A program made the translations under genes and the position numbers. Shown here one piece after another: positions 2,724-18,230 of a DNA stretch of 38,871 nt. Under the pieces are notes generated by a model that saw only the letters and a program-made list of their open reading frames with translations, was not told the origin of the DNA and ran no database searches. Source of the stretch: a virus (lineage: Duplodnaviria; Caudoviricetes); IMG/VR virus record IMGVR_UViG_3300022670_000401, positions 1 to 38,871 of that record; one strand, given 5' to 3'. The first letter of the stretch is position 1, and every line of letters begins with the position of its first letter.

Positions 2724-3131
2724 CTACCATGATTTCCACCAGTTACTAAGCTTTCTCCAGCCCACTACGCCGCGAAACATCCTGGGTATCTTCCATGTTT
2801 TCACTTTACTTTCCCTCAGCAATACACGAAACACTTTATCTCTCAGTATTCCTCTCCAGCCATTTTCGATACCAAAGTCATGAAACATACTGCCTATAGC
2901 AAATACTTCGTCCATGGGTTTACCAATCAACCATTGCACTGCCCAAGGTATATCAGCACCATTCCATGGATACCCCTTACGGATAACGCCTTCTTTTGCC
3001 TTACATAGACCACCTTCTTCGTAGGTAATTGTGTAGTTTACGTCCTGGTCAAGTACCCACTCATCGCCTTCTTGATGCTTGAGTACGTCAGAATGCAGAA
3101 TTGCCACATCTTTAATTTTTTGCATTACCAC
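2724..3131 (-). CDS. DUF1353 family protein
   Basis: KGYPWNGADIP...SMFHD...RDKVFRVLL...MFRGV pattern; sits next to the endolysin. Confidence 0.8.
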   Translation of the reverse strand: MVMQKIKDVAILHSDVLKHQEGDEWVLDQDVNYTITYEEGGLCKAKEGVIRKGYPWNGADIPWAVQWLIGKPMDEVFAIGSMFHDFGIENGWRGILRDKVFRVLLRESKVKTWKIPRMFRGVVGWRKLSNWWKSW

Positions 3132-3496
3132 CTCTCATTTTCTGCTCTAACGTCAATATGGGTAAAGCTGGAGTATCTGCCAATTCCGTATTTACCGTCA
3201 AAAAATCGACTCAGGAATAAATACACGTTGCCAGGGTCGATATCTTTAACCCGAATATCTGCGGCAATACCTACAAGGTGCTTGCTGCCCTTGGTTTTAT
3301 CTTCTGGATTACTAGGTTTTCCGCCCACAGCTTTGTTGTGGTCTGGGCATCGGCATGCTGAATTGATATAAACCGGTTTATCGAAATGATCCCTTACAAA
3401 CTCCAAAACACGTAAAAGCTCGGCATCTACGGCGGCAAAACCACACCCGCACTTACACTCAAATTCCGATCTTGAGAAATTCTTGCTTATTTTCAT
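3125..3496 (-). CDS. Peptidase M15A-family endolysin
   Basis: NFSRSEFECKCGC, SACRCPDHNKAVGG, SKHLVGIAADI and FTHIDVR Zn-peptidase motifs. Confidence 0.92.
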   Translation of the reverse strand: MKISKNFSRSEFECKCGCGFAAVDAELLRVLEFVRDHFDKPVYINSACRCPDHNKAVGGKPSNPEDKTKGSKHLVGIAADIRVKDIDPGNVYLFLSRFFDGKYGIGRYSSFTHIDVRAENERW

Positions 3497-3885
3497 TCCT
3501 TCACTTCCTTTGGCTTAGATTCCTCAAACTCTTTCTTAACGATCTTCAGAATCGTCTCAGTTATCCAGCTTATGAGATACGCTACAGATTCGTTATCCCT
3601 TAAGGTAGGATTTAGCCCAACAATATCACCGACATACATTGCAGCATGAAAAGCCTCGTGCGCCAGGCCGGCCAAAACAACGCAGCCATCTTCATGCGGC
3701 ATATGGATTGATACCGTCATAGACCCTTGCTTGTGATAGCAGTATCCGCCGAAATCCATGCAGTGATGGGAAAGTTTGTTCTTAGCATCCATAGCCTTAG
3801 CGTTCGAACAGTACTCAAGTGTCACCGGATACAGCGGGAAAGGAATCTTGTGTATCTTTGCTTTAATCTCTCTTTGTTCGGTCAT
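3493..3885 (-). CDS. Hypothetical protein with an HExxH (AHEAFH...NE) metallo-motif
   Basis: LAHEAFHAA and NESVAYLI. Confidence 0.7.
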   Translation of the reverse strand: MTEQREIKAKIHKIPFPLYPVTLEYCSNAKAMDAKNKLSHHCMDFGGYCYHKQGSMTVSIHMPHEDGCVVLAGLAHEAFHAAMYVGDIVGLNPTLRDNESVAYLISWITETILKIVKKEFEESKPKEVKE

Positions 3886-3898
3886 ACCTACCCCTTAG

Positions 3899-4204
3899 CT
3901 ATGAAAAATATACCTGCGTAACTTGGCGCTCTTTTCTTTCCACAAACTTGGCTTCGTCCAAATCATAGGAAAGGTCCATATCCTCCATACAGTCATCACC
4001 GGTGATTATGTAATCAGTGTATTGGATAAACTTGCCTTCGATCTCAGTAACACGCTCTTCAGCTATGTACCGTCGATGCTCATCCTGCTCGCCCTTATGA
4101 ATAACTTTTCCGTAATCCGTTAGGATTTCAGCCAAGCCATTGTCATCAGCGTCCCAACCCTCTTTATTTGCGATGGCCGTTAAAAACTTTCTGATATCAG
4201 TCAT
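3899..4204 (-). CDS. Hypothetical acidic phage protein
   Basis: 101-aa ORF with an AAGGGGA RBS. Confidence 0.7.
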   Translation of the reverse strand: MTDIRKFLTAIANKEGWDADDNGLAEILTDYGKVIHKGEQDEHRRYIAEERVTEIEGKFIQYTDYIITGDDCMEDMDLSYDLDEAKFVERKERQVTQVYFS

Positions 4205-4264
4205 ACATTCCCCTTATATTTAACCTTTAACGTGTTTAACGCCCTGTGGTAGCGGCGCTTGTTA

Positions 4265-4510
4265 TCAACCTACATCTACCCAATCTTCTGCAAGCATATC
4301 GGTTTGAGACGCTAGCCAGGGTACGAGGCTTTTTGGCGCCGCTTCGTTTTCTGTCTGAAGTCCTGTTGTGTCGATGTAAATGTAGGGGCTTGTCATCTTA
4401 CTGTTCACATCAGGACGCTGAATCTTGATAAAAATACCCTTACCATTCCAGCCAGACCGGGCAATCTTACGCCCCGCCTTCAGTTCATGTAATGCTTGTC
4501 CAAAATCCAT
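4265..4510 (-). CDS. DUF2829 family protein (Tad2-like signalling-nucleotide sponge, anti-defence)
   Basis: MDFGQAL..LKAGRKIARSGWNGKG...PWLASQTDMLAEDW is the DUF2829 signature. Confidence 0.85.
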   Translation of the reverse strand: MDFGQALHELKAGRKIARSGWNGKGIFIKIQRPDVNSKMTSPYIYIDTTGLQTENEAAPKSLVPWLASQTDMLAEDWVDVG

Positions 4511-4603
4511 AAATCACCTCTAACTAAATGAGCCAGTAAAAGTACAAAAGGGGCTGGCTCGATAAACCCCTTATTTGTTATGCGCCCATAGAGCGCGGTG
4601 GTG

Positions 4604-4876
4604 TTACCCGAACTCTCTAAGAAGGTTCGATATTCCAAGCGCATCGGACGTCATTATTTCTTTATTGCGCCTTACCGAATAAGCCATGCCTTTAGGTACG
4701 ACAGATAAATCCTTATCATTAAAATAGTTAGAAAATATCCCTGCAATCTGGGCCTTTGTCGCTCCTTTGTTTACTGAGGATGGCCCTGACTTATCCGCGC
4801 TATCAAAAATCTCTTTTAGCTCGCCCCATGTTCTTGTATTAGTCTGAGCTTCTTTTTTTGCTTTTGCATTATTCAT
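4604..4876 (-). CDS. Hypothetical protein
   Basis: 90-aa ORF with RBS. Confidence 0.65.
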   Translation of the reverse strand: MNNAKAKKEAQTNTRTWGELKEIFDSADKSGPSSVNKGATKAQIAGIFSNYFNDKDLSVVPKGMAYSVRRNKEIMTSDALGISNLLREFG

Positions 4877-4898
4877 ATCTATCCCCTTAACCTGTTAA

Positions 4899-5102
4899 TT
4901 ATTTTCCAAAATCCATGTAGCCAGTGAAAGCACCGACAAAAGGTATAATTCCAATACCATGCATTACTTCAGCCTTATATGGTGCCTCAAAATCACAATT
5001 TGAAAGCTTGTATAAATTCTTACCCCATCCAATGGCAGATATAATCGCCACCAAAATCAGTACAATAACAATATTCGATAATTTCATATCAACAGTCCTC
5101 AA
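4899..5102 (-). CDS. Small membrane protein
   Basis: Hydrophobic N-terminus; CDFEAPYKAEVMHGIG motif recurrent in phages. Confidence 0.65.
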   Translation of the reverse strand: MRTVDMKLSNIVIVLILVAIISAIGWGKNLYKLSNCDFEAPYKAEVMHGIGIIPFVGAFTGYMDFGK

Positions 5103-5377
5103 TATATTGGTGAATAGTGTTCGCCGGTTGTGCGCGTTACCGTTTTGATTATCCGGCTCTTTACTGCCCGGCCGAAGTTTAATATCACCAGCCGGGCTTC
5201 AAGCAGCTCATCGATAGGTGACAATGACTCAAGCTTAATGTTTTTGTCCTGGCACGGAGCCCAGCGGCCTTCTGAATTTGAATCTTCAACCCAGATATAA
5301 AGCTTAAAATTATTCAGCTTATGAAATATGGGCTTGCCATTTGTCATTGCAAAGCTTTGTGCGTCTTGTGGTTTCAT
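5099..5377 (-). CDS. Hypothetical protein (true start probably MKPQDAQ at 5377)
   Basis: AAGGGA RBS before the ATG at 5377; the longer ORF call overlaps ssb. Confidence 0.55.
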   Translation of the reverse strand: MKPQDAQSFAMTNGKPIFHKLNNFKLYIWVEDSNSEGRWAPCQDKNIKLESLSPIDELLEARLVILNFGRAVKSRIIKTVTRTTGEHYSPIY

Positions 5378-5426
5378 GCTTTTCCCTTTTAATAAGCTAT
5401 AAACATAGCACTGCAAAATTATTCCT

Positions 5427-5945
5427 TTAATAGACTGGAGGTGCCACACCTTTTTCCCACCCAGGATTGCCTTGGTTTTTGTAATAAGCGGCATCATCCA
5501 GGCACATTTCTTCGCCGTTAGGGAACCAGTACCCAGTCTGAGTCGGCGCTTTCGGGGCTTGTTGTGGGGCTGACTGATATGTTTGTTGAGATGCAGCTTG
5601 TTGTGCTGGCACCGCCTGTTGCGAATGTGGCACACCATCTGAATGAACATAGCCAAGCTTTGAATCCTGAATAACCAGCTTTGGCTTGTACTTCGGGTCA
5701 GTCTGGTCTTCCATGATAATGCCAGTGCCAGATACTTCGATAATGGCACCCTTAATCAGCACATCATTGTAATACTGGATTTGTCCATCTTTTGCGAACA
5801 ATGCGGCCTCGTAATTCGTGTACTCGTTTTCCTTGGTTTTATAGTTAAAATTCTTCTCTCCAAGGCTTACAAAGAAAGTGGTTCCGGTATCGCCTGCGTG
5901 CTGTCGTGCATCGTTATTCAATTTACAGGTTACTGAGTGTGTCAT
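5427..5945 (-). CDS. ssb: Single-stranded DNA-binding protein
   Basis: OB-fold pattern (KGAIIEVSG) with a Q/A/P-rich tail; follows the recombinase and Gp157 genes. Confidence 0.75.
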   Translation of the reverse strand: MTHSVTCKLNNDARQHAGDTGTTFFVSLGEKNFNYKTKENEYTNYEAALFAKDGQIQYYNDVLIKGAIIEVSGTGIIMEDQTDPKYKPKLVIQDSKLGYVHSDGVPHSQQAVPAQQAASQQTYQSAPQQAPKAPTQTGYWFPNGEEMCLDDAAYYKNQGNPGWEKGVAPPVY

Positions 5946-5971
5946 AGTGTTTCCTTTACGGTTATCCGCTG

Positions 5972-6460
5972 TTATTTAATTGTTAAGCCAGGCTTTGATT
6001 CGCCTATTGTGGCGCCAGGTATTTCAGTGCCGGCTTTAAGTGCAGTCAATGCCGCCTTTTTATCGATTGAATCAACAACCTTAATTGACCTGTATTCGTC
6101 AGGAATCAATGATTCGTCAGTGATTTTTAGGACTGGCTTCGGCTTTGATAGGCTGGCCGATTTAATGCCGCCGCTGATTTTCTTCAGTTTCATGGCTTGC
6201 ATGTTGTAAACCAGGTATTCCTCAAGCTTTGCCTTTGATTTCTCAATTGCTCGCCTGCGATCCGAAAGGCGTTTTTCTTCTGTCTTGAATGCTTCAATGT
6301 CGCCGCTCAAGTTTGCCAGCAAAAACAGAATGCTCTCGCCCTTGCTTTCAAAGTCGCCTTTGATCATATCGATTGTGTCGGCAAGCTGATCTTCTGGCAC
6401 TCCGTCAGAAATCATTGTTTCAATTTCTTTCATGCTTCCTGTGATTTCATACAGCTTCAT
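5972..6460 (-). CDS. Siphovirus Gp157 family protein
   Basis: MKLYEIT, EEKRLSDRRRAIE, DESLIPDEY and IDKKAALTALKAGTEIPGA. Confidence 0.9.
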   Translation of the reverse strand: MKLYEITGSMKEIETMISDGVPEDQLADTIDMIKGDFESKGESILFLLANLSGDIEAFKTEEKRLSDRRRAIEKSKAKLEEYLVYNMQAMKLKKISGGIKSASLSKPKPVLKITDESLIPDEYRSIKVVDSIDKKAALTALKAGTEIPGATIGESKPGLTIK

Positions 6461-7203
6461 GCTTTATCCTCCAGCTTCTTTTTTGCTTCATGGTACGCGG
6501 CGTCCAGTGTCTTTTTCTCTTCCTCTGGCTTTAGCCCAAGGATAGGCGCTTCTCGGTCAATCTTGCCGGATGCCATGCCGTACACGCTGCCAACAGCCTC
6601 CATGTTTGGAACCATTGCAATTGCATCAACCTTGTCAGCAACAAATGCCCGCAACTCTTTAATCTTTAAGGTGTACTGCTCGTCAGCGTGGTCAGCTTTC
6701 TTCAGGTCATTCTCAAGTTTGGCTTCCTGCTTGTATCCATGATCATCAAATTCGCCCATAAATACATCGGAGCAAACACCTAATAGGCTAAGGCACTTTT
6801 TCATTGCATCGGTAACTGATTTTTTAGCGTATTCATGATCAACATAAATCTTTCCGTTGTTGGTCATGTATCGGTATTTAGTGTGGCCATACTGCTGAAA
6901 TGAATTGTCTTTTGTTCCAGCCCACATTTGAATTAAAAGCGTGTGCGTCTTCTCCCAAACAAAAGCGCCGTTATCCTTCATTACCTCATTGTTTAGCATC
7001 ATTGGCTTGGTATCGTCCATACGCTCGCTAATGATTGAGTAGCCCCAGCCTTCGCCTATTGGCCCCAGAACCTCGGTTGCCAGCTTAACCATGTACACGC
7101 CATCCAAACTTGTAAGCTTGTTACCATCAACGTTAGCGGCCTTTGTGTACTTCTCGTCAGTCTTTGGAAACTGATTCCAAATCTTTAATCCCGTGTCGCT
7201 CAT
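6457..7203 (-). CDS. Rad52/Sak-like single-strand annealing recombinase
   Basis: ATEVLGPIGEGWGY and AKKSVTDAMKKCLSLLGVCSDVFMG motifs; start at 7203 after CAACTAAGGGG. Confidence 0.75.
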   Translation of the reverse strand: MSDTGLKIWNQFPKTDEKYTKAANVDGNKLTSLDGVYMVKLATEVLGPIGEGWGYSIISERMDDTKPMMLNNEVMKDNGAFVWEKTHTLLIQMWAGTKDNSFQQYGHTKYRYMTNNGKIYVDHEYAKKSVTDAMKKCLSLLGVCSDVFMGEFDDHGYKQEAKLENDLKKADHADEQYTLKIKELRAFVADKVDAIAMVPNMEAVGSVYGMASGKIDREAPILGLKPEEEKKTLDAAYHEAKKKLEDKA

Positions 7204-7220
7204 ATGTTTCCCCTTAGTTG

Positions 7221-7465
7221 TTATTTGCCAAAACTGTACTTTTGGCACTTACTTTCCATTTCAGATCCGCTTTCAAAGAATCCATAAGCCCAGTAATCAT
7301 TATGGCCACACTCTTCGCACGTTGTTTTAGTCTCGTAAACCCGCGCTCATCATAAGCAGGATTTATAAGCTCGTTTTTCTCACCGCAGGCATTACAAGAA
7401 TCCATGCAGTGATATTGAGTTGGCTCCCTCGTTTCTTTTGGGTGTATCGGTTTTTCTTGTTTCAT
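7221..7465 (-). pseudogene. Zinc-ribbon protein split by a -1 frameshift near 7335-7342
   Basis: Frame 0 gives CNACG; the -1 frame gives YETKTTCEECGHNDYWAYGFFES...K* ending just before the next RBS. Confidence 0.6.
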
Positions 7466-7488
7466 GATTTTTCCCTTAGTGAGCACAC

Positions 7489-7530
7489 AGTATAAACGCT
7501 GTTATTTTTAACATCAACCTATTTTTAACA
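7489..7530 (-). promoter_or_regulatory. Leftward early promoter (TTGATG-N17-TATACT) with tandem operators at 7500-7513 and 7517-7530
   Basis: Palindrome TGTTA-TTTT-TAACA lies between divergent genes. Confidence 0.7.
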
Positions 7531-7573
7531 CTGTTTTTCGTGTATGCTGAGTTTTTTACATGAGGACTATATT

Positions 7574-7807
7574 ATGGCTGCACCAGCTAAAGAAGAATTT
7601 GAACGCACATCAAGCCTGCCTAAATGCTTCGAATTGGCATTTAAGAAAACCGGCCTTAAGGTAAAGGATTTTGCCTACTTTATGAACATTGATACTGCTC
7701 GAAGCTGCCGGATTCGAAAGCAGGAAAACATGCAGACAGATACAGCACAGAAGGCAGCCGCATTTTTTGGTATGCCTATGTCTGAGTTCATTAAGTTAGG
7801 CGAATAA
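7574..7807 (+). CDS. XRE/Cro-like HTH transcriptional regulator
   Basis: GLKVKDFAYFMNI...TAQKAAAFFGMPMSEFIKLGE; GAGG RBS before the ATG at 7574. Confidence 0.8.
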   Translation: MAAPAKEEFERTSSLPKCFELAFKKTGLKVKDFAYFMNIDTARSCRIRKQENMQTDTAQKAAAFFGMPMSEFIKLGE

Positions 7808-7831
7808 CAATCAGCTTCGGGAAAAGCAACT

Positions 7832-8107
7832 ATGTGTAACTGCATGACAGAACTAAAAGCCAATATTGCGCGTGATTTGGCAGTTGAGCACAATGTGATT
7901 GGCGGTGTAGATGCTCGATGGTCAAACACTAAACGAGTGTCTACCAAGGATAAAATGCAGCGTAACCGGGTTGTAGTGGTGCCGTCAGTATCAATCACTG
8001 CAACCTACTCACAAACAACGGCGCTTGGAAAACCGTTTAAAAATGCTACTGTTGAAAGTATTACGATTAAACCTATTCACTGCATGATCTGTGGGAAAAA
8101 GTTATGA
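7832..8107 (+). CDS. Zn-binding hypothetical phage protein
   Basis: MCNC at the N-terminus and CMICGKK at the C-terminus. Confidence 0.7.
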   Translation: MCNCMTELKANIARDLAVEHNVIGGVDARWSNTKRVSTKDKMQRNRVVVVPSVSITATYSQTTALGKPFKNATVESITIKPIHCMICGKKL

Positions 8108-8298
8108 CACATAAAATTGGGATAGGAACTATAGAATATCTAATGAAGTCCCATGTTCCTTGGCAGCCAGGAAAAATACATGTTGGGCCGGTAGAGCTGT
8201 CTAAGGACGATCTCATTCATAGTCCCGATATACATAAGCTTGCATCAATGATGGCATCACTACGGGGTAAAATAGAAAATATGATTGAGCCCATTTAG
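8104..8298 (+). CDS. Hypothetical protein
   Basis: ATGA-coupled 64-aa ORF. Confidence 0.55.
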   Translation: MTHKIGIGTIEYLMKSHVPWQPGKIHVGPVELSKDDLIHSPDIHKLASMMASLRGKIENMIEPI

Positions 8299-8323
8299 GG
8301 TTATTCTTATTATTAGATTTGAT

Positions 8324-8366
8324 AAAAAAGCCCGGCTGGCTAAGGGATAACCAGTCGGGCTTTTTT
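8324..8366. terminator. Bidirectional intrinsic terminator
   Basis: A6-GCCCGGCTGG-loop-CCAGTCGGGC-T6 between convergent units. Confidence 0.9.
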
Positions 8367-8517
8367 GGGTCTGCGTGGATGAGAACAAACCAAGGGTACT
8401 AATCAACTAAGGGGTGCCCGGTACAATTCCTTGTATCCGGGCCTAGGTCACTTCGGGAAAAGCACATGACACTATCAAGGAGATGTTTTAAATCAAGGAG
8501 ACAGGGGCATAACCTGT
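8324..8517 (-). ncRNA. Candidate ~190-nt sRNA with multiple anti-Shine-Dalgarno motifs
   Basis: Promoter TTGTGT-N17-TATTAT at 8522-8550; four hairpins (U-G pairs and a GGAA loop favour the minus strand); terminator; CU-rich loops and linkers. Confidence 0.65.
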
Positions 8518-8550
8518 GGTGATAATAACCTGTAATTATTGGCGACACAA

Positions 8551-8886
8551 CTATGCGCCGTAATGCGCTTTCTCTTTTCTTCCGCTTGCCTGCTTTGTCC
8601 GCCATATATCACAGCGCCTTTCAGCGATAATCATGCGGTATTTAAGCTCTTCACTTTTCTCAGTGGATGCCCTCAAGCCCTGCAGTAGCTCAAGGTATTC
8701 TGGGTGTGAGTATGCGTATGCCTCCCGCTCCTGGCCGGTCTTTATGCCGCCGGCCTGAGCCTCAACCATCAAAATAGCTTTCTTACTCTTGCGAAATTCG
8801 GATAAATACACCGTCTCAGCCTTTGCGCTGGCGTACTCAGATACGTGTTCTCGCCAGGCGTGTATCAGCTTTTCAATGTCTTCCAT
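8551..8886 (-). CDS. Conserved helical phage protein (possibly UvsY-like)
   Basis: EREAYAYSHPEYLELLQGL...IWRTKQA pattern. Confidence 0.7.
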   Translation of the reverse strand: MEDIEKLIHAWREHVSEYASAKAETVYLSEFRKSKKAILMVEAQAGGIKTGQEREAYAYSHPEYLELLQGLRASTEKSEELKYRMIIAERRCDIWRTKQASGRKEKAHYGA

Positions 8887-9244
8887 TGGAATTTACCTCA
8901 AACCAAAATACGACCGGACCGAACTTTTCTTGAATTAACCCGAAGCGTTCTGCTGTCCTGAAATTTACAGACGACTTACGCCCCCGCTCAACCTGAAGTG
9001 ATATCTCATTCCTGAATTCCTCTATGGAATATACCGACTTAAACAGATTGCATGGGGCGCAGGCAGGTACCATATTTTCAATTGTGTCGTTCTCGGGCTT
9101 ATTCATAGAGCCGTTTGACCGATAGACAGCATCCACATGATCGGCGTGCCAGCCTTTTTCAGGTAGTCCGCAGCCGCAATACCAGCAATGACCGTTAGAC
9201 TTTGACCTTACTTCTGCCCGCTCCTTTTTTGTTAGTGCCATCAA
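8873..9244 (-). CDS. HNH endonuclease
   Basis: CWYCGC...WHADHV...NMVPACAPCNLFK. Confidence 0.9.
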   Translation of the reverse strand: MMALTKKERAEVRSKSNGHCWYCGCGLPEKGWHADHVDAVYRSNGSMNKPENDTIENMVPACAPCNLFKSVYSIEEFRNEISLQVERGRKSSVNFRTAERFGLIQEKFGPVVFWFEVNSNGRH

Positions 9245-9430
9245 CCTTTCCCCTTAACCCTTATTTATGTAAATTATCTATCCTAGAATCAACTTTCTTG
9301 CTCTCTGCCTTGAGATAGGCTTTAGTCATTTTTATTCCAAAACCAGGATGAACTAATGACCAAATACCAATTACAATAAACCAAGAGAACAGCCAAATCC
9401 TTAATTTCACCCTTCTAATTACTTTCGGCA

Positions 9431-9625
9431 TTATTTACCCTTAACCCGATTAAGCTCTTTTCGTAACACCTCGCGCCTACCCTCCGGAATACCCGCCAAA
9501 TACTCCCGTATCCGATCAGGCTTCCAGCACTTAAGCATCGTGGCGGCATCCTCTCGGTACTGTAATGTGCAGGCGTTTGTCGTTTGCACTGTTATACCGT
9601 TTATTGTGAGTGGTTTACTATTCAT
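9431..9625 (-). CDS. Hypothetical protein
   Basis: Coupled 64-aa ORF. Confidence 0.55.
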   Translation of the reverse strand: MNSKPLTINGITVQTTNACTLQYREDAATMLKCWKPDRIREYLAGIPEGRREVLRKELNRVKGK

Positions 9626-9902
9626 TGATTGCGCAGATAACCTGGCTTAATGCTGTCCTGGTTGCGCCTCCAATGTGATTGCTAAGGCTAACTGAGTGAT
9701 TTGAAGATATGACATCAAGAAACCCACTGACGGTAACAAGTGTATGCTGCCGCTTTTCCTTCAGTCTTTCGCTCTCTGCCTTTAGCTCTGCTATCGTATT
9801 TACAAGTAAATCTACTGCCAGCTCTACATCCTCTGGCTTCGAGTACTTTCCTGCAGACTTGGTGTAATCAATAAGTATGTTTTGAGCATCTTCAGTATTC
9901 AT
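9618..9902 (-). CDS. Hypothetical coiled-coil protein
   Basis: 94-aa ORF with a TAAGGGGA RBS. Confidence 0.6.
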   Translation of the reverse strand: MNTEDAQNILIDYTKSAGKYSKPEDVELAVDLLVNTIAELKAESERLKEKRQHTLVTVSGFLDVISSNHSVSLSNHIGGATRTALSQVICAINE

Positions 9903-9918
9903 CCTGCCTTCCCCTTAA

Positions 9919-10110
9919 TTACCAAGTAAAAATATTTCTCAAAATAGGATCTTCGCATTCATGATGGTGCCTCATTGATATTTTGCCATCATCAAGATTA
10001 ACCACTCTTACGCCTTTCTCATCATCAAAAGTGTTGTCGTGAAGTTCCAGAACGCAAGCCCTGAACGAGCTTTATCCATGCGGAAATGCGTCTAATATTT
10101 GGCCTTTCAT
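9919..10110 (-). pseudogene. 63-codon gene interrupted by an in-frame TAA at 10072-10074
   Basis: RBS TAAGGGGAAGGGA-ATG at 10110; 50 more sense codons follow the TAA and end at the next RBS. Confidence 0.4.
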
Positions 10111-10257
10111 TCCCTTCCCCTTAATTGGATTTTTGCCCGAATTTTCAAAATGCTGATTGACAATGTAGGTAACCGCCTTATTCAGCGACCACATTCTTTC
10201 GTCTGCAAACTTCTGCAGCTTTTCTTTTTGCTTATCGCTAGGTCTATATGATATCAA
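10072..10257 (-). CDS. Ribbon-helix-helix (Arc/CopG-like) DNA-binding protein
   Basis: ISYRPSDKQKEKLQKFADERMWSLNKAVTYIV fits the RHH pattern; AAGGAG RBS before a TTG start. Confidence 0.75.
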   Translation of the reverse strand: MISYRPSDKQKEKLQKFADERMWSLNKAVTYIVNQHFENSGKNPIKGKGMKGQILDAFPHG

Positions 10258-10334
10258 GCCTATACTCCTTATTTGATTTTGTTTGACATATTATTATTCA
10301 TATTGATTGATAAGGCAATATTTATATTCACCTA

Positions 10335-10363
10335 TTGATACCCGGGTAATTCATGCCTATAAT
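10335..10363 (+). promoter_or_regulatory. Strong sigma70 promoter (TTGATA-N17-TATAAT)
   Basis: One mismatch to consensus, ideal spacing. Confidence 0.85.
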
Positions 10364-10369
10364 TCGTTT

Positions 10370-10840
10370 TGTTGTTAGGGCTTCGCCAGGGCCTGGGTAA
10401 ATAAGTGGAAACAAGAGGTTTTTGTTCTGTGTGGGTTAGGTTCCGAACTCTGGCGAGTTTTCTACTTTCCCTATCGCACATAGAACAAAGGCCTTTTTTT
10501 TCGCCTATCATTTCTCCTCCTGGCTTAGCCCTTCCAATAATGGGAACGGGTATACCAAAGGGCACCATTCAAAAAACGCCGTCCTTAGCAATAAGGGATT
10601 GTGGTCAATAACAATCTGCAAAACCGTTTGAATAAATCACTGGCTCTGACCTACCCACCGTCAACCAGAAGAGGAATCCTTTTTTATTCGTAGGATTTCA
10701 GGTCACATATGAGGAATCGCACATCGGTGCAGCTTAGTACACGGCCAGTAATGGCTGGAGATAGCCCGACAAGCCAAGCAGTAATAGGCATTGTTTTAAG
10801 GTTACCTCTTAGTGGAAAGGTGGGGGGATTGTAACTTAAA
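10370..10840 (+). ncRNA. Candidate large structured RNA: attenuator-like leader plus a ~290-nt multibranched domain and a 3' G-rich hairpin
   Basis: 21-bp helix 10413-10433/10477-10497 whose non-Watson-Crick pairs are all G-U on +; nested long-range helices; GCAA and GAGA tetraloops; no credible ORF. Confidence 0.7.
10413..10501 (+). terminator. Long leader hairpin followed by U8 (terminator/attenuator)
   Basis: Helix ends in TTTTTTTT at 10494-10501. Confidence 0.65.
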
Positions 10841-10854
10841 TATAGGAAATAATT

Positions 10855-11127
10855 ATGGAAAGTAACTTGAAAACAATTGATACAGCACCTAAAGACGGAA
10901 CGATTATTATTTGTTTTCGTTCGTCAGAGTTTCAGATTTGGCAGGGTAAATCACTAGTTGTTTGCGCCTGGTACGATGATCTTGAATGCTTTACATGGCC
11001 GGATGACGATTTTTATAACGAATATGATTCCAACAAATTTTGGGAGCTGGTTGAAGCAGGGTCATATCATGACAATTCATTTACTCATTGGATGCCACTA
11101 CCTAAAGAACCACTCAATGAAGGATAA
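10855..11127 (+). CDS. DUF551-like protein
   Basis: IDTAPKDGT...THWMPLP. Confidence 0.8.
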   Translation: MESNLKTIDTAPKDGTIIICFRSSEFQIWQGKSLVVCAWYDDLECFTWPDDDFYNEYDSNKFWELVEAGSYHDNSFTHWMPLPKEPLNEG

Positions 11128-11386
11128 ATACAAGCTATACGCAATAAGCACAGGCAATCGAATCAAGATAGTTCTGAGTAAGCGCATTGATAAGACGTTT
11201 GATTCTATGCTGAAGGGGTACGAGGGTCATTTAGAGGTGTTATTGACCTATCATGTAGGAAGTGATCCAAAGGCTGCAAAAAGGGAACACAAGCGCTTAC
11301 TGAAGTTCTGCCGTAAGTACTTCTTAGAGAAGGATTGGTTCGATATGGCTGTAATGGATAAGATCAAAGAGTTCAGGGTTAAATAA
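11117..11386 (+). CDS. Degenerate T5orf172/GIY-YIG-like protein
   Basis: LYAI..GNRIKIVLS...KDWF resembles VYFI..IKIG.S...GEWF with key residues changed. Confidence 0.5.
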   Translation: MKDKYKLYAISTGNRIKIVLSKRIDKTFDSMLKGYEGHLEVLLTYHVGSDPKAAKREHKRLLKFCRKYFLEKDWFDMAVMDKIKEFRVK

Positions 11387-11396
11387 AGGGAAAGTT

Positions 11397-11681
11397 ATGG
11401 ATATTGAAAACGAGATAAGAAGACAGGTTATTCGCGGAAACTCCGGAGATATCAGGGATTTATTAATTAACTCGTCTCAAATTGGTTTATTAGGCGGCAT
11501 AGGAAAAGGGACTATTACAAGCAAGCAGTTGTCAGACATTATTGATGTAAGCATTCAGAACGCCAACGGAAAGCTTGAGCGACTAAGGAAGGCTGGATAC
11601 CTGAGAAGGTCTAATGTCGGAGACCCAACAGGCGGCGATATGTATGTCTATGAATGCACGCCACTTGTTCTAAATAACTGA
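11397..11681 (+). CDS. Winged-helix DNA-binding protein
   Basis: TSKQLSDIIDVSIQNANGKLERLRKAGYLRR...GGDMYVY. Confidence 0.8.
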   Translation: MDIENEIRRQVIRGNSGDIRDLLINSSQIGLLGGIGKGTITSKQLSDIIDVSIQNANGKLERLRKAGYLRRSNVGDPTGGDMYVYECTPLVLNN

Positions 11682-11722
11682 GTCTAAATGCTCTTAGGGT
11701 TAACTGTAATAAGGGGAAAGGT

Positions 11723-12379
11723 ATGATCGAATTGCACAATATTGACTGTATGGAGTATATGCGCGGACTGGCTGATAACGCTTTTGAACTCGCGATCGTG
11801 GATCCACCGTATGGCCATGGCAATAATTTGATAGTTAAAGGTAATACGCGATCGAAGATAGCGACTGCGGGCCAATTCAAGGCTTACGACAACTCTAAAT
11901 CTCCCGATCGCGAATATTTTGACGAGCTGATGAGGGTGTCAAAAAACCAAGTTATATGGGGCGCAAACCATTTTGCCGGAAAATTCGACTCTTCTGGATC
12001 CGCATGGATAGTCTGGGACAAGCACACGACTGGTGATTTCTCTGATTGCGAGCTGGCATATTCATCATTTGGTACCGCGTGCCGAAAATTTGACTACATG
12101 TGGAATGGAATGCACCAGGGATCCGCGGGCGGGAACATGAAGCTGAACGAAAAACGGATCCACCCGACACAGAAACCGGTGAAGCTATACCAGTGGATCC
12201 TAGAAAAGTACGGTACCAGTGGCGATAAAATACTAGATACGCACCTTGGCTCTGGATCCAGCGCGATCGCGGCACACTATGGTGGGTTTGATTTTGTTGG
12301 CTGCGAGTTGGATCCTGATTATTTCAAGGTCACAAAATCAAGAATAGAAATCGAAACATCACAATTCGATATGTTTTGA
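11723..12379 (+). CDS. DNA amino-methyltransferase (N6-A/N4-C, beta class)
   Basis: DPPY precedes HPTQKP and ILDTHLGSGSS. Confidence 0.95.
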   Translation: MIELHNIDCMEYMRGLADNAFELAIVDPPYGHGNNLIVKGNTRSKIATAGQFKAYDNSKSPDREYFDELMRVSKNQVIWGANHFAGKFDSSGSAWIVWDKHTTGDFSDCELAYSSFGTACRKFDYMWNGMHQGSAGGNMKLNEKRIHPTQKPVKLYQWILEKYGTSGDKILDTHLGSGSSAIAAHYGGFDFVGCELDPDYFKVTKSRIEIETSQFDMF

Positions 12380-12415
12380 TCAAGTTATTAATCGGCTTAG
12401 GCCTGGGAGTAAGTA

Positions 12416-12637
12416 ATGGAACAAGTTGTAATCGCGTTTACGGGTGTTATTGCTATATGGCTAACCCAACAGAACAACGAATCATGGAAGCGCTATGCGT
12501 GCCTGTTTGGGCTAGCTGGCCAGCCGTTCTGGTGTTACTCGGCATATCATGCTGATCAGTGGGGTATTCTGATTCTGTCAGTGTTTTATACCTACGCCTG
12601 GATGATGGGCATTTGGAATAATTGGATTAATAAATAA
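12416..12637 (+). CDS. Small multi-TM membrane protein
   Basis: Hydrophobic; GLAGQPFW...QWGILILS motif. Confidence 0.7.
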   Translation: MEQVVIAFTGVIAIWLTQQNNESWKRYACLFGLAGQPFWCYSAYHADQWGILILSVFYTYAWMMGIWNNWINK

Positions 12638-12665
12638 CCCAAATCCACAGCACTAAAGATAATCC

Positions 12666-12694
12666 TTTACAGTGCTATATTTAGCAGCTATAGT
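12666..12694 (+). promoter_or_regulatory. Sigma70 promoter (TTTACA-N17-TATAGT) with an operator at 12673-12686
   Basis: TGCTA-TATT-TAGCA palindrome in the spacer. Confidence 0.75.
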
Positions 12695-12719
12695 TTGGTT
12701 TCACTAAGGGGAAATGATT

Positions 12720-12848
12720 ATGTTCAACAATATAGAAATCCGCACAAACTCAGACAGATGGCCATCATTTAGACTTGTGGTTGATGGGGCTATGGTTTCG
12801 TTTGGATCGTTTGGCCCTAGTGGCGTTAACTTTTGGTATGTTGATTAA
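12720..12848 (+). CDS. 42-aa peptide (MFNNIEIRTNSDRWPSFRLVVDG...), not in the ORF track
   Basis: First ORF after the promoter; ACTAAGGGGA RBS. Confidence 0.5.
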   Translation: MFNNIEIRTNSDRWPSFRLVVDGAMVSFGSFGPSGVNFWYVD

Positions 12849-12880
12849 CCAATCAGCCCCTCTATAAGGGCATAAGGGGA

Positions 12881-13312
12881 ATGAGTGTGGAAGCAATAAA
12901 AGAGTTTAGCGGTGATTACCGTTGGTTGAGTAATTTTTGGTTATGCCCGATATGGGTGGGGGAGCATGTTTATCCATCCACAGAAAACGCATATCAAGCA
13001 GCCAAATACCCAAAGTCACAACGACAGCAATTTACAGCATGTTCTCCAGCTATGGCTAAACAGCTTGGCCAGAGAATACAGCTCCCGAAAAACTGGGATA
13101 CAGAAAAACTAGCTGTTATGCGCAAAATCACATATCAGAAGTTCAGGAAAAACACGTTCAATTGCGGCCTACTTACTGGAACTGTTGGTGCCGAGATAAT
13201 CGAAGGCAATACCTGGGGTGATACGTTTTGGGGTGTATGTGATGGTACCGGCGATAACAATCTCGGAAAGATATTGATGGAAGTTAGAGCTGAATTGCTC
13301 GAAAGTTTTTAG
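12881..13312 (+). CDS. NADAR (YbiA-like) family protein
   Basis: WLSNFW, YPSTENAYQAAK and IIEGNTWGDTFWGV...GDNNLGKILMEVR. Confidence 0.93.
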   Translation: MSVEAIKEFSGDYRWLSNFWLCPIWVGEHVYPSTENAYQAAKYPKSQRQQFTACSPAMAKQLGQRIQLPKNWDTEKLAVMRKITYQKFRKNTFNCGLLTGTVGAEIIEGNTWGDTFWGVCDGTGDNNLGKILMEVRAELLESF

Positions 13313-13335
13313 CGGCTTAGGCCATAGGGGATGAT

Positions 13336-13749
13336 ATGAATAATATTGATAATATGAACGAATCTGAAGTGAAAGCGATTCTTAATGAGATTTGCGTTGG
13401 AATGGGCGGATCAGCAAGAACTGCCTCTGTGATATTAACTTGTGTTAGGAATGCCAGTAGAAGAAGTGGCTGCCTATCAAGAATAGAGAATTATCACTCT
13501 ATTCTTGTTGATGATGAAGATGGAGGAGAACAATCTGAAGAATGGCTTTTGAATTGGGGTGAAGATCCTGATAAATATATTGAAACCTATAAGTCCGTAA
13601 TTGCACATAATCCGCTAACAGAGCGCGTTAAGGTGCTGGAGGATGCCATTAAGGGGTTCATCGATATGGATTCGAGAACCCATAAAGAGACGGACGAGTA
13701 TCTGTTTGGAATATCAGATTTAATAGAAGCACTAAAGGCGGACAAGTAA
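13336..13749 (+). CDS. Hypothetical protein
   Basis: 137-aa ORF with RBS. Confidence 0.65.
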   Translation: MNNIDNMNESEVKAILNEICVGMGGSARTASVILTCVRNASRRSGCLSRIENYHSILVDDEDGGEQSEEWLLNWGEDPDKYIETYKSVIAHNPLTERVKVLEDAIKGFIDMDSRTHKETDEYLFGISDLIEALKADK

Positions 13750-13961
13750 TGGCTATTGAGCACGTAGGTACAGATACCGATATCACGAAGAACAAGATCG
13801 TATACTGGTTTATGGTCAACGGCAGCAAGTTTGGGCTGAAGATACAAGACCTTGATGTAACAGTTGTGAATGAGGAAGGCGACGAACTAAAAGGCGTTAG
13901 CGGACCCTTTATCAATGATCTGATGAATGCGCGTGATAAGGTTCTGGAGGCTGAATCATGA
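13749..13961 (+). CDS. Hypothetical protein
   Basis: Coupled ORF. Confidence 0.6.
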   Translation: MAIEHVGTDTDITKNKIVYWFMVNGSKFGLKIQDLDVTVVNEEGDELKGVSGPFINDLMNARDKVLEAES

Positions 13962-14245
13962 ACAATACGACACAAGACATCACAATCGAAGTGTGCGGCC
14001 ATGAGATGGACGCAACGGTCAATGTTAGCTATGAGCCTGGCGAGAAGGCTGTGACTCACTTGGCGCCAGAGGATTGCCATGAGGGTATCGATGAAGTATG
14101 GGAACTGGACACTCTTATTGTTGATTATCGTGAAGATGATTTGCCAATCCCAAAGCATTTTGATCTGTCCGGGCTTCTGGATATTCGGCATGTTCATGAT
14201 TCTATTTTGAATGACGTGAAGGAGTTGATGATCGATGGAGGATAA
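13958..14245 (+). CDS. Hypothetical acidic protein
   Basis: Coupled ORF. Confidence 0.6.
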   Translation: MNNTTQDITIEVCGHEMDATVNVSYEPGEKAVTHLAPEDCHEGIDEVWELDTLIVDYREDDLPIPKHFDLSGLLDIRHVHDSILNDVKELMIDGG

Positions 14246-14725
14246 ATGGCTAGGTCTTGCAGGGTTCTGTCTGTTCGTGGCAGCAGATATTTTTATTGTA
14301 CTTGTTTTGCTGAAATATTATGAAGACGAATCTGAAATTAAATGACTGGGAAAAGCAGTCAATCAATCAAAAAGTCGATCGGGACTGGGAAAATATATGT
14401 GCGTTTTTCGCTGGATTAAAAGTAACACTTACGAGGCTTCGTGCTGGCTTGCGATTTTATGCTTTATTGCTGGTGCGGCGATTTTCGAATACTCGATGAG
14501 TCAGCGGCATATTGAGCACATGATGAGCGAGGTTAGGAAGTGAAACAAAAGTTAACTGCCAGGCAGTATCTAAGTAGAATTAAAGACCGGTTAGTGCACT
14601 TGATATTTTATGGAAAAAACAGATCGGTATGTTCTTATGATCAAATTCGTTCGTGCAAATATTGCAAAGAACAATTCAATGAATGGAAAAAGGGAAATAA
14701 ACCAAGTGAGCGAGGTTAGAAAGCA

Positions 14726-14908
14726 ATGAAGAAAATCATGTTTGTGTTTGTTCCTAAGGGTGCACCAATAATGGACAACTACACTTTGCACGATACGGCA
14801 GACGAAGCCTGGGAAAAGATAGAAACTAAATCAGGCAACCCGAGAGACTGGCTAATGGGTCAGGAGCATAGGGTAGTCCGGTGTTATTTGGATATGATTG
14901 AATATTGA
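14726..14908 (+). CDS. Hypothetical protein
   Basis: 60-aa ORF with a GAGG RBS. Confidence 0.55.
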   Translation: MKKIMFVFVPKGAPIMDNYTLHDTADEAWEKIETKSGNPRDWLMGQEHRVVRCYLDMIEY

Positions 14909-15110
14909 GGGGAAAGGTGTGGATGATTTGAGCGAGCTTTCGTGTGATTGCGACAAACAAGATTTAAAGTTTAAGGTGTCTATTGGCGCTTATAATGACC
15001 ATTTTGATCTTATCAAATGCGAGAATTGCAAAAAGAGAACTAAAGCGTTTTGGAGAAAAGACGAGGCTGTTAATGCGTGGAAGAACTCAGAGTTCTTTGA
15101 AAGAAAATAA
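14898..15110 (+). CDS. Lar-like (restriction alleviation) Zn-finger protein
   Basis: CDC...IKCENC...DEAVNAWKN resembles the Lar C-terminal AI.AWN motif. Confidence 0.5.
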   Translation: MNIEGKGVDDLSELSCDCDKQDLKFKVSIGAYNDHFDLIKCENCKKRTKAFWRKDEAVNAWKNSEFFERK

Positions 15111-15131
15111 CGAAAAATAAGGGGAAAGAAT

Positions 15132-15383
15132 ATGGCGGCACTTACAGGATGTGAAGTAGGCGATGTGATAATTAATCACAACTACAGAAACGATAACCCA
15201 AAACGCTTAGGTATTTTCGTTGAAGAAAACGAAATGATGCACCTTATTGATGAGAATGGTTATAAGTGGACTGTTCCAAATGATAAGGGCGCAAATCTTG
15301 AGGTGTTTCGATACACCAAATTCAAAGATTATATGCAGGAGTGTCGGGATCAATTGGCTGCTGTTAAAGAGGTTATCAAGTAA
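15132..15383 (+). CDS. Hypothetical protein
   Basis: RBS plus 83-aa ORF. Confidence 0.6.
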   Translation: MAALTGCEVGDVIINHNYRNDNPKRLGIFVEENEMMHLIDENGYKWTVPNDKGANLEVFRYTKFKDYMQECRDQLAAVKEVIK

Positions 15384-15661
15384 TGAATATAGAAAGCATA
15401 AAGAAAAATAAAAAATCAAGCCATGACTGGACAATTATAGAGACACTGCAACAACTCATAAGAGATCTTGAATCTGGTAATTGCTCATATAATAAGTGCT
15501 TTATCAGTCTGCTTTCAGATGAAAATGAGGGAGAATACACGACAGGTTTTAGAATGGTTAAAATGAGAGGATATGAGGTTATATCTCTACTAGAAATAAT
15601 GAAAGGTGATCTTGTAAATGCAATAAATGGTCTTCCTTCTGAATTTGAGGCTGAAGAATAA
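15383..15661 (+). CDS. Hypothetical protein
   Basis: Coupled ORF. Confidence 0.6.
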   Translation: MNIESIKKNKKSSHDWTIIETLQQLIRDLESGNCSYNKCFISLLSDENEGEYTTGFRMVKMRGYEVISLLEIMKGDLVNAINGLPSEFEAEE

Positions 15662-16221
15662 TGGTCAGACGCTGCAAGTGTGGGTGCAAAACCGAACTAA
15701 TGTCAGCCGCTAAGTGCTCAGATTACTTTGAGAAAAAAGGCTATGTAAATGTTTCGCATATGGCACTGCATGGACTAGCTAAGTCGGCCAAGAAAAAGCA
15801 GCAGGACCAGAAGTCTAAAAACATATCTTTCAAAAAAGAGTTTCAAAAGTCAGACGTAAAAACAAGGAAGGCTGCAGCCAAAGAATGGTGTCATCGATAC
15901 ATAAGGATCAGGGACCAGGGAAGACCTTGTATATGTTGCGGTAGGCCTCTTGGTGAAAAGTATGACGCCGGCCATTTCCTTGAGTCTGGCAACAACTCAA
16001 TACTGCGATACCACGAAGACAATATTCATGCCCAATCCGTTTACTGCAACCAATACAAAGGCGGCAACAGTGACGACTATGAAGGCAGGCTTAGAATTAA
16101 AATAGGTGATGAAAGGGTTGATTATCTATTGGCAAATAAAGGCGGACCAATAAAACGAACCGCTGACGATTACAAAGAAATAGAAGATTATTACAGGGTT
16201 AAAATAAAGGAATTGGCGTGA
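15661..16221 (+). CDS. ninG: NinG/Rap family recombination endonuclease
   Basis: YIRIRDQGRPCICCG...YDAGHF...LRYHEDNIHAQ...CNQYKGGN...KIGDERVDYL. Confidence 0.92.
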   Translation: MVRRCKCGCKTELMSAAKCSDYFEKKGYVNVSHMALHGLAKSAKKKQQDQKSKNISFKKEFQKSDVKTRKAAAKEWCHRYIRIRDQGRPCICCGRPLGEKYDAGHFLESGNNSILRYHEDNIHAQSVYCNQYKGGNSDDYEGRLRIKIGDERVDYLLANKGGPIKRTADDYKEIEDYYRVKIKELA

Positions 16222-16322
16222 CTCCAGATCAGCAGTACGCGCAACGGCAAAGGCAGTTTAGGGAGTATTTGAGAATGGAGGTTAGGCGGGATGTGAAGAA
16301 GAAAACATTTAGGCAGAAGTTG

Positions 16323-16344
16323 AGCGGGCTAATTAAAGCCCGCT
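16323..16344. terminator. Hairpin between the convergent early and late units
   Basis: AGCGGGCT-AATTAA-AGCCCGCT; U-tracts are weak. Confidence 0.65.
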
Positions 16345-16349
16345 AGACT

Positions 16350-18230
16350 TTATACTGCAGTTAAGCCTACTTCAAAAACAACGCCTGACAACCTTATCCT
16401 TACTGATCCAGCGGCAGTTACGTAAAGAGCGCCTGATACGCCTGTAACTTCTTGAATTACTAAAACCCTTGGCACAAAATCGGTATACCTGTCACCGGTA
16501 TTTCCGAATGACTCCAGGCGGCTAAAGTCTTTCTCGGATACTTGCCCGTTTCTTGCACCCTGGGTATGAAATGCGCCCGCCGATTTTTCATAGTAATATG
16601 CGTCATCATCTGTTTCGGACACATATGATCGGCGGTACAGGTTCGCTGCGGTGTTTATTTTTCTTTGCTCTGTATCGGCCATAAGCCTCAAGCCAGTTGT
16701 TACGAAGTCATCTGCCGCAGGAGATGATAAGTTACAACCGCCCCACCTAACTTGATTTCTGGCTACAGTTGGGATTAGGTTAGTCGAAAGAATGGCTGGC
16801 GTCATATCTATCCAGTTAAAGCTAGCGTCCGGGTTGAATACTTTAGTTGGCCCCAGCACTAAGTTAATTACGGACGCGCTCAGGTATATGTCAGAATGCA
16901 GCTTAGCCGGATCGCCGCTATGAGCTGAAGACCTCGCACCAACTTTTATTATCTCATTGGTTCCATGAGTAATGTGTATATTTACGTCACAAGCCTCTTG
17001 ATGTAAATTTGATATATGAAGTCTACCTATATTTCCAACTCTAATCCCCTCTCCACGGTTTGCAGGAATGGCCTGTGGAGTCCCGCCCTGTATGGTTGAG
17101 GGATTTTCTATAAAAAGAGATTCAACGTCAATTAGGCCAATGGGGCCTGACGCGACATTTGTCTGGTCTATTTCCCAAACAGCCCTGGAGCCGACAACGC
17201 AGCCATTAATCCAAAGTAAACCGATTTTATAATCGTAATTATACTCGTTAGAAAGTCCAGGGCCGAAATTGTTTAGAATGAATATATTGTCTAATACGGT
17301 TCCTACAAATACGCCCCATAGAGCGATAGCCTCAGCCAGCACTGTCTGGTTATCGCGATTACCGTTTATTGTTATTCCTTCAATTACGAAGTAATGCGTA
17401 TCCACATCAAGGGTTGGAGTGAACCATTTAGGCGTAGCTAGGACTGGAGCATCCATATTGTCGGCTCGCTTAATAACTGTCCCTGACTGGTCGTCGATTG
17501 TAGAGCCGCCCCTTATGGCTACACCCCGTTTTAGGGGTATGGTGTCGGTTATTGTTAGCTCTCCTCCGTTAGTTGGCAGCCATAACGCGTCATATCTTGC
17601 GGCTTCAGCAGCATCATATGCCTTTATAATTGCTGAAATGTTATCCGCGAGGGATTTATCAACACCAAACCACTCCGCAAGAAACATATCTCCTAGCGGG
17701 CGTTTCCACCGCTTATCGCCAGGGGTGACAATTATGGTTCCGTCATTGTCTGCACTGGTAGTATCAGAAGCATCAAAGAAGAAATCGCCGCCGCCTATCC
17801 CTGGTGTTGTGTGGCCAAGTAGGCTTGCTTGTTGGCCATCTACCGTAGGCTCAAATAATCTCAATTTATCAAGATTGCCAATTGAGGAGACGCCACTAAC
17901 CTCGGTAAGTGGTACTCCATCATTTACATTGGATTGCTCAAGAGCAAGATTTCCACCGCTATCATTAACCCTAATTGCGTAATTGCCATCAACTAATAAG
18001 ACAATAGGGCTTCCATTGAATACAGGGTATCCGCCTGAGTTTGTTGATACCGGCTGAGGTATATTGACCTTTGTTCCGTCTTCCTGCTTTGCGGTGACCT
18101 GTTTTTGGTTGGCTACAATAGTTGGATCTAAATCGGGCTCGCCAACAAATATCTGCCCGTTGAATATAGGGCGACCCTGGTTTCTTGCGTTGAAGTAAGC
18201 GTATGGATTGCTTACGAAATTTTCAGCCAT
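16350..18230 (-). CDS. Tailspike: P22-type head-binding domain plus a beta-helix receptor-binding domain
   Basis: VSNPYAYF...NGQIFVGEPDLDPT...QPVSTNSGGYPVFNG; GGGDFFFD...DNDGTII; beta-helix-like repeats. Confidence 0.9.
   Translation of the reverse strand: MAENFVSNPYAYFNARNQGRPIFNGQIFVGEPDLDPTIVANQKQVTAKQEDGTKVNIPQPVSTNSGGYPVFNGSPIVLLVDGNYAIRVNDSGGNLALEQSNVNDGVPLTEVSGVSSIGNLDKLRLFEPTVDGQQASLLGHTTPGIGGGDFFFDASDTTSADNDGTIIVTPGDKRWKRPLGDMFLAEWFGVDKSLADNISAIIKAYDAAEAARYDALWLPTNGGELTITDTIPLKRGVAIRGGSTIDDQSGTVIKRADNMDAPVLATPKWFTPTLDVDTHYFVIEGITINGNRDNQTVLAEAIALWGVFVGTVLDNIFILNNFGPGLSNEYNYDYKIGLLWINGCVVGSRAVWEIDQTNVASGPIGLIDVESLFIENPSTIQGGTPQAIPANRGEGIRVGNIGRLHISNLHQEACDVNIHITHGTNEIIKVGARSSAHSGDPAKLHSDIYLSASVINLVLGPTKVFNPDASFNWIDMTPAILSTNLIPTVARNQVRWGGCNLSSPAADDFVTTGLRLMADTEQRKINTAANLYRRSYVSETDDDAYYYEKSAGAFHTQGARNGQVSEKDFSRLESFGNTGDRYTDFVPRVLVIQEVTGVSGALYVTAAGSVRIRLSGVVFEVGLTAV

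Follow-up and report, generated by a model that had tools for sequence, protein, structure and literature searches.

In the ColE1 plasmid, RNA II stays hybridized to its template by way of an rG-dC contact, described as essential (PMC4412123), and cleavage by RNase H gives the primer for DNA polymerase I (PMC5043065, PMC4412123). The MRB replicon pB1067 has an RNA II of at least 465 nt and an ORF-free region of about 500 bp (PMC3035462). Certain extrachromosomal mycobacterial prophages carry RNA-based origins beside parABS, which function in the prophage state and are dispensable for lytic growth (PMC7157519). A different logic is described for P4 CI and Gifsy-1 IsrK, where short and read-through isoforms act on each other (PMC4825925). 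The orphan motifs PAGEV, ARRPOF, and GEBRO, structured and 223-349 nt long, are associated with replication regions (PMC5737381). A search of mostly non-subscription literature found no RNA-primed origin of a lytic phage, PMC7157519 being the nearest report.

The locus described here lies in a window of 38,871 nt, which is the entire IMG/VR record IMGVR_UViG_3300022670_000401 (Duplodnaviria; Caudoviricetes). The phage genome is whole and circular; its first 144 bases recur at its end as direct terminal repeats (CheckV 100%). Searches with PHROGs and Pfam recognized virion genes of the P22 type (terminase, portal, scaffold, coat, tail-hub, and ejection), recombination-side genes (a Sak/Rad52-like annealase, Gp157, an SSB-like protein at 42% to proteins annotated as OB-fold/SSB, and NinG), and the accessory genes methylase, NADAR, and Tad2. 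Vibrio phage 234P9 is the closest cultured phage (portal 63%, coat 69%). The Tad2-like anti-Thoeris domain is located at 4265-4510 on the minus strand (Pfam PF11195, E 3e-24), and the NADAR-family protein at 12881-13312 on the plus strand (E 2e-21) is presumably an anti-defence ADP-ribose hydrolase. In the virion cluster, a 1075-aa protein (25823-29050, minus strand) has no PHROG or NCBIfam match; 234P9 has a 1051-aa gene in the equivalent position, with no tblastn similarity between the two. Four ORFs without a family are inserted between the portal and scaffold genes (32859-34188, minus strand). A cro-like HTH gene, assigned by eye (7544-7807), and a winged helix (11397-11681) were the only regulator-type genes recognized, and neither an N- or Q-type antiterminator nor a CI-type repressor was recognized in the whole genome by PHROGs or Pfam. 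At the junction of the cro-side genes and an opposite-strand block, a strong bidirectional terminator-like hairpin (8324-8366, A6 ... T6) is among the top-scoring windows of the genome folding scan. The GC skew tracks gene direction, and the skew at four-fold sites is inconsistent across relatives and thus uninformative for an origin.

At 10335-10840 the first-pass annotation had proposed a new class of non-coding RNA. Words of this element are present in six metagenome runs, which by their records are from sediment, cold seep, and seawater with one run unlabelled; one of the six, X1, may be the source of the element, and carrier sequences X2-X5 from four other studies were taken into an alignment. 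They keep 10490-10825 at 94-98% identity and the flanks stop aligning, no aligned carrier sequence beginning further upstream than 10368. Carrier depths are low (2-5.5), and single differences may therefore be errors. A second, more distant X2 contig aligns over 10782-10815 (34 nt, 4 differences) and is either a further homologue or a chance match. In the relatives, the overlapping frames are interrupted by single-base deletions (10490, 10657) and by a stop codon that G10757T creates; a conserved ORF across the element was thereby ruled out, in agreement with the earlier statement that no credible ORF is present. A search of Rfam 15 gave no match at the gathering threshold, including to PAGEV, ARRPOF, GOLLD, ROOL, group I/II introns, RNase P, and 6S, and relaxing the cutoff to E 10 added no more than four matches, of 14-18 bits, that are attributable to chance. 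Likenesses to RNase P, group I/II intron, SRP, 6S, and CsrB motifs seen by eye were dropped, having neither partner strands nor Rfam support. Blastn against phages and plasmids (PLSDB, 72,556 plasmids) gave no match to the element, none was found in 5 IMG/VR and 11 cultured phage records, and protein-anchored scans for homologues returned nothing. Pattern searches at the DNA level hit 41, 0, and 110 loci among viral contigs, 24 among metagenome contigs, and 0 and 23 among genome contigs, all of them chance by blastn, nhmmer, or alignment score. The proposal of a new conserved non-coding RNA is well supported, and we are highly confident that the locus is a real, new, and conserved RNA element.

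Table 1. Features of the RNA locus and extents of the aligned carrier sequences
Feature	Positions	Strand	Remarks
Sigma-70-type promoter	10335-10363	+	TTGATA-17-TATAAT; predicted start near 10370
5' block	10368-10394	+	predicted to pair first with 10448-10457, later with 10519-10540
Long hairpin leading into U8 (10494-10501)	10413-10501	+	predicted intrinsic terminator/attenuator giving a short RNA of ~130 nt
Apical hairpin with UGGC loop (CUGGCG)	10445-10460	+	stem kept in X2
Core of long read-through RNA	10503-10830	+	94-98% identity in X2-X5; several competing folds
C-rich tract CCUACCCACC	10650-10659	+	complementary to 3' G tract
G tract GGUGGGGGG	10819-10827	+	candidate R-loop nucleation site
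Ribosome-binding site and first downstream gene (DUF551-like)	10844-11127	+	Pfam PF04448, E 4e-5
Divergent promoter (10318-10290, 9/12) and 61-aa ORF (10072-10257)	10072-10318	-	RHH-like by eye only
X2	10467-10857		about 98% identity
X3	10495-10810		97% identity
X4	10562-10733		98% identity
X5	10491-10716		94% identity; plus collinear islands 10368-10394, 10802-10824, 11116-11145

The first-pass annotation had further suggested an RNA-based replicon and raised the question of a recognizable initiator elsewhere. No initiator, helicase, loader, primase, polymerase, integrase, par, N, or Q gene was found among the 119 ORFs of 60 aa or more (66 + 53), all of which were scanned against PHROGs, and the same replication, integrase, and par classes were absent from searches of Pfam (68 ORFs) and NCBIfam (30 unassigned ORFs). 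Translation in all six frames revealed no Phage_rep_O, DUF1376, DnaB_C, or integrase match, and tblastn of the genome with six replication-region proteins from relatives gave a best E of 0.14. An iteron array, taken as a three-copy direct repeat, was not found in 7200-16400, nor was a DnaA-box cluster found. Exclusivity with O/P-type genes was assessed in 12 comparator phages, a non-random sample picked through portal, ejection-protein, and early-gene matches (three share early genes only). All 12 have an O-like initiator, of 184-321 aa, and none has the RNA element; the initiators were recognized by Pfam (234P9, G003), PHROGs (H6/1, 1.165.O, 1.247.A), tblastn (BA3, X14, 1.183.O, FGH, 1.178.O, CV-1-33), or depositor annotation only (ctkAd229). 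This mutual exclusion rests on one RNA-bearing genome, because it is the only carrier whose initiator status was established. The RNA lies near the O slot without occupying it exactly, since two small genes and a 1.9-kb opposite-strand block separate it from the cro-like gene; in G003 the matching block contains O and DnaB. The ORF at 11397-11681 (94 aa, with a MarR-like look) is much shorter than the comparators' initiators and may be a small cryptic initiator.

The case for the replicon is circumstantial. The genome is complete and has no recognized initiator or helicase, all comparators have an initiator, and neither iterons nor a DnaA cluster were found, so the element may replace the initiator; its position outside the exact O slot and its single G tract speak against the idea. 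We give about even weight to the proposal that the long transcript is an RNA primer that starts phage DNA replication, in other words an RNA-primed origin with same-strand attenuation.

The near-consensus promoter noted at first pass matches the consensus at 11 of 12 positions and is the best of 33 found in 1-16500. In X5, a TATAAT is in the same place within 1 nt, just before 10368, with a different spacer, and the 5' block has a single difference, whereas the next 96 nt diverge. A candidate second promoter at 10506-11 was rejected on account of T10511C in 3/3 relatives. The previously described 21-bp helix with four G-U pairs (10413-10433/10477-10497) was present in a letter-by-letter check. 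The hairpin at 10405-10502 has a folding z of -5.4, and the 5' rod at 10370-10545 has a z of -7.7 (other strand -4.8), beating all 878 other 176-nt windows. By folding energy, the claim of dense plus-strand structure was borne out for the 5' rod, where the thermodynamic signal lies, and only weakly for the 3' domain. A terminator scan with a loop limit of 8 nt did not flag the long hairpin. Its following T run is kept in X2, X3, and X5, and its arms diverge. In X2, the apical hairpin retains the UGGC loop and all 6 pairs despite changes in 7 of the 12 stem letters; three pairs are changed on both sides in an ungapped alignment read by eye and post hoc, and a gapped alignment shows fewer two-sided changes with the stem still kept. 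On this post hoc reading of the sequences, the loop hairpin covaries. We take its CUGGCG to be a YUNR-type loop and, together with UUGGCG in X2, to match the target-loop motif of ColIb-P9 copy control, a subject of work cited in PMC10724649 and PMC3753616.

The duplex of the 5' block with 10448-10457 has a predicted energy of -17.9 kcal/mol, and 0.8% of 3000 random segments were as good; with 10519-10540 it reaches -29.5 kcal/mol, equaled by 0 of 2000. The first of these helices, 10 contiguous bases (10382-91/10448-57), is metastable, with a probability of 0.82-0.98 at transcript ends 10463-10483 and gone at 10487. RNA polymerase covers some 12-14 nt of transcript, so that the loss of the helix at 10487 approximately coincides with the polymerase being at the U run. 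After read-through, folding predicts a shift of the 5' block to 10519-10540 in competition with P2, which with P1 forms the domain-closing helices of the core. At equilibrium the terminator fold is favored by 12 kcal/mol (-41.6 vs -29.2), and read-through therefore needs kinetic trapping. In this folding model the metastable helix predicts an attenuator. While the transcript ends at 10463-10483, the 5' block would pair with 10448-57 and exclude the terminator stem until the polymerase is approximately at U8; read-through would yield an RNA of ~460 nt and termination one of ~130 nt. The short RNA would expose CUGGCG, which can pair with the 5' block of a nascent transcript, and might thereby favor termination in trans, acting as a brake whose strength depends on dose. 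The altered loop of X2 could still make 8 pairs with the 5' block of the studied genome. Only weak minus-strand candidates for an antisense promoter were found, and in 3/3 relatives the candidate at 10537 lacks the A of its -10 box, although a promoter away from the consensus may exist. Because no antisense promoter survives the comparison, the trans regulator would most simply be the 130-nt terminated RNA itself, as with P4 CI and IsrK (PMC4825925).

At first pass, the divergent 61-aa ORF had been labeled an RHH protein and considered as the regulator. It has no Pfam, PHROG, or PDB match and only a weak NCBIfam match to the TnpB N-terminus (E 0.047), and a profile search with it returned itself and three repeat proteins only. 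No profile thus confirms the label, and the regulatory role is likewise unsupported, as the ORF lies outside the aligned sequence of all four relatives X2-X5. An exact 14-bp repeat (9907-9920/10113-10126) resembles, on the minus strand, a ribosome-binding site; its second copy is within the 61-aa ORF just before an ATG, a hint of a small overlapping ORF.

The G6 run at 10822-27 is present as noted earlier, and no other G6, nor any C6, occurs in the genome. The suggested pairing of CCCACC (10654-9) with GGUGGG (10819-24) is kept in relatives, and the C tract/G tract pairing has a probability of 0.95 in the full transcript, with a duplex value of -15.7 that was reached by 2 of 3000 random segments. 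In X5, CCCACC is restored 4 nt further upstream by a pair of changes around 10652-57, an observation made post hoc. X2 keeps the G tract whole, and the last island of X5 ends at 10824, exactly at GGTGGG and three G before the end of the run. As the polymerase crosses GGTGGGGGG, the C tract of the RNA would capture the displaced non-template strand, whereby the nascent rG run would stay on the template dC run and the R-loop would persist. If events then follow the ColE1 pattern, the host's RNase H and Pol I would convert this R-loop to a primer and its restart proteins would load the helicase, after which the Sak-like, SSB-like, and NinG proteins of the phage would support recombination-dependent amplification. 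A simpler role for these two tracts would be an RNA pseudoknot, or a helix gating the downstream ribosome-binding site. The full scenario, in which a P22-like phage dropped its initiator/helicase module and replicates lytically from a C-tract/G-tract R-loop primer RNA of a new class, with its own 130-nt isoform controlling dose where other systems use an antisense RNA or a protein, is put forward tentatively, as possible but doubtful in its entirety.

The strongest competitor of the primer is that the RNA acts as a regulatory leader for the early genes transcribed rightward, in which the attenuator and a large read-through domain would serve termination or antitermination and replication would start elsewhere; P4 CI/seqA-seqC, Gifsy-1 IsrK, or a put-like RNA antiterminator could serve as models. 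The promoter, the terminator-like hairpin, and interchangeable CUGGC/GCCAG helices at the head of the operon are what such a leader would contain, the ribosome-binding site follows immediately on the last RNA hairpin, the genome has no N or Q match, and interacting short and read-through isoforms are documented for IsrK and P4 CI (PMC4825925). However, the density of CUGGC/GCCAG (5 copies in 460 nt) is matched by 3% of genome windows, and the downstream gene varies among carriers, X2 matching up to the ATG at 10855 and then differing and X5 skipping the gene, which argues against a gene-specific leader. A leader would also leave the missing initiator unexplained, and 330 nt at 94-98% identity far exceeds what a leader usually needs. 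We consider the leader unlikely, though a serious candidate. An 89-aa ORF at 11117-11386 (plus strand), by eye a degenerate GIY-YIG/T5orf172-like protein without a family match, accompanies the RNA in X5; its relatives are at 89% and 51% identity, the latter on a Logan contig, vs 94-98% for the core.

The core is less well defined by folding than the 5' rod. Its segment 10500-10795 folds weakly (z -1.3), and a core segment has a z of -1.45 vs -4.67 for the ColE1 segment. The six long-range hexamer and heptamer pairings listed at first pass are all present letter by letter, but the bare count of perfect helices of at least 6 bp is near chance (13 vs 10.1, P 0.21). Mutually compatible helices of this kind in 10503-10830 number 8 vs 4.3 +/- 1.1 in shuffled sequences, 0 of 150 of which reach 8. 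The P1 and P2 helices have probabilities of 0.96 and 0.86 if the RNA is trimmed to 10500-10795 and of ~0 in the full transcript, where CCCACC/GGUGGG and the 5'-end helix displace them. The nesting exceeds chance, and the earlier 3' secondary structure is one of several competing folds. Natural changes did not spare its helices: of 21 substitutions, 7 break, 2 keep, and 12 are unpaired (null 6.2 broken, P 0.75), and for an extended fold the figures are 8 broken and 5 kept (null 8.2). One P2 pair is removed by U10525C in 3/3 relatives covering the site. Post hoc, the pair 10674/10698 is G-U, A-U, or G-C in different carriers and a GNRA loop is kept, GCAA becoming GUAA in X5. Single-stranded stretches are conserved as much as helices, 10594-10651 being invariant in 4/4. 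The weak fold, the substitutions that do not validate it, and the X5 match that stops three G short were counted against the primer. An 8-bp palindrome, GGTATACC, at 10549-10556 within the core is unchanged in X2, X3, and X5 and is a possible protein site or RNA dimer contact.

Conserved single-stranded stretches and the retained GNRA loop would also suit a large orphan RNA, structured or catalytic and loosely comparable to GOLLD or ROOL, whose function has nothing to do with replication. The phage would then depend for replication on a small unrecognized initiator, such as the winged-helix ORF at 11397-11681, or on recombination by itself. Other large phage RNAs with no assigned role have been described (PMC5737381), and the 94-aa ORF does have a winged helix. 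Against this, there are no iterons for a protein initiator, the ORF is MarR-like and short relative to 184-321 aa, and the RNA has neither tRNA context nor an Rfam ribozyme match, making this explanation less probable again than the leader. That only the ~130-nt terminated RNA is made and the core is a DNA-level origin or protein-binding site activated by upstream transcription, possibly folded as single-stranded DNA, is very improbable: the U8 directly after a strong stem, the core z, the unspared helices, the palindrome, and the fact that comparative methods also detect ssDNA motifs (PMC5737381) would fit, but the 5' block is predicted to pair beyond the terminator as none of 2000 random segments does, the GNRA loop and G-U-type changes fit the plus strand, and there are no repeats or DnaA boxes.

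The RNA-primed origin, as the preferred reading, can be set beside the known systems. The ColE1 parallel drawn at first pass holds in part. Shared are the absence of a recognized element-encoded initiator, a promoter ~0.5 kb (460 nt) upstream of the G6 run, and, by prediction here, multi-state folding with alternative long-range helices. In contrast to RNA II, to which no sequence likeness was found (score 83 vs 68.9 +/- 8.3), a pre-primer of about 550 nt that ends at the origin, this RNA has a single G6, against two in the ColE1 record (at 928 and 1175); its G tract has a complementary C tract within the same molecule; neither a promoter for an antisense RNA I that persists in relatives nor an Rfam RNAI match was found; and the locus has an internal terminator-like hairpin in a tailed-phage setting. 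With MRB (PMC3035462), the locus shares a marine gammaproteobacterial setting, an ORF-free region of ~500 bp, a long RNA of ~465 nt (predicted here), and, close to the 5' end, an inverted repeat resembling a terminator. In MRB it is the 68-nt antisense RNA I that has the consensus promoter and terminator, whereas here they are on the long-RNA strand. MRB replicons are defined by a 110-bp RNA I core and a 488-bp ori, and the PLSDB search, in a collection without the pB1067 record NC_010733, gave no match to the element. With no antisense RNA I found and a single G6 run, the RNA is probably not a member of the ColE1/MRB group, though it would work like these replicons if the primer model holds.

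With P4 CI and IsrK (PMC4825925), the locus would share one promoter giving a short terminated and a long read-through RNA with complementary same-strand segments, features that are predicted here; it differs in having no Rfam match and in a read-through product that is a 330-nt conserved non-coding core and not the mRNA leader of a fixed gene. PAGEV, ARRPOF, and GEBRO (PMC5737381) are likewise orphan structured motifs, whereas the present element has no Rfam match even at E 10. Even under the competing explanations, the element represents a phage RNA family that is new and strongly conserved and for which a kinetic attenuator is predicted. The mycobacterial prophage origins (PMC7157519) have parABS adjacent, whereas no par match was found here; common to both are a tailed phage without repA or integrase and a non-coding RNA region as origin, a candidate in the present case. 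Because par genes, polymerase, and helicase are lacking, the RNA would here have to serve lytic replication. RNA-started replicons are rare, being represented in the literature consulted by ColE1, MRB, and some mycobacterial prophages. If the primer reading is true, it would explain some complete phage genomes without replication genes by a compact, protein-free origin, and a phage of lambdoid layout with a 0.5-kb RNA in place of the O/P module would extend RNA-started replication from these systems to lytic replication.
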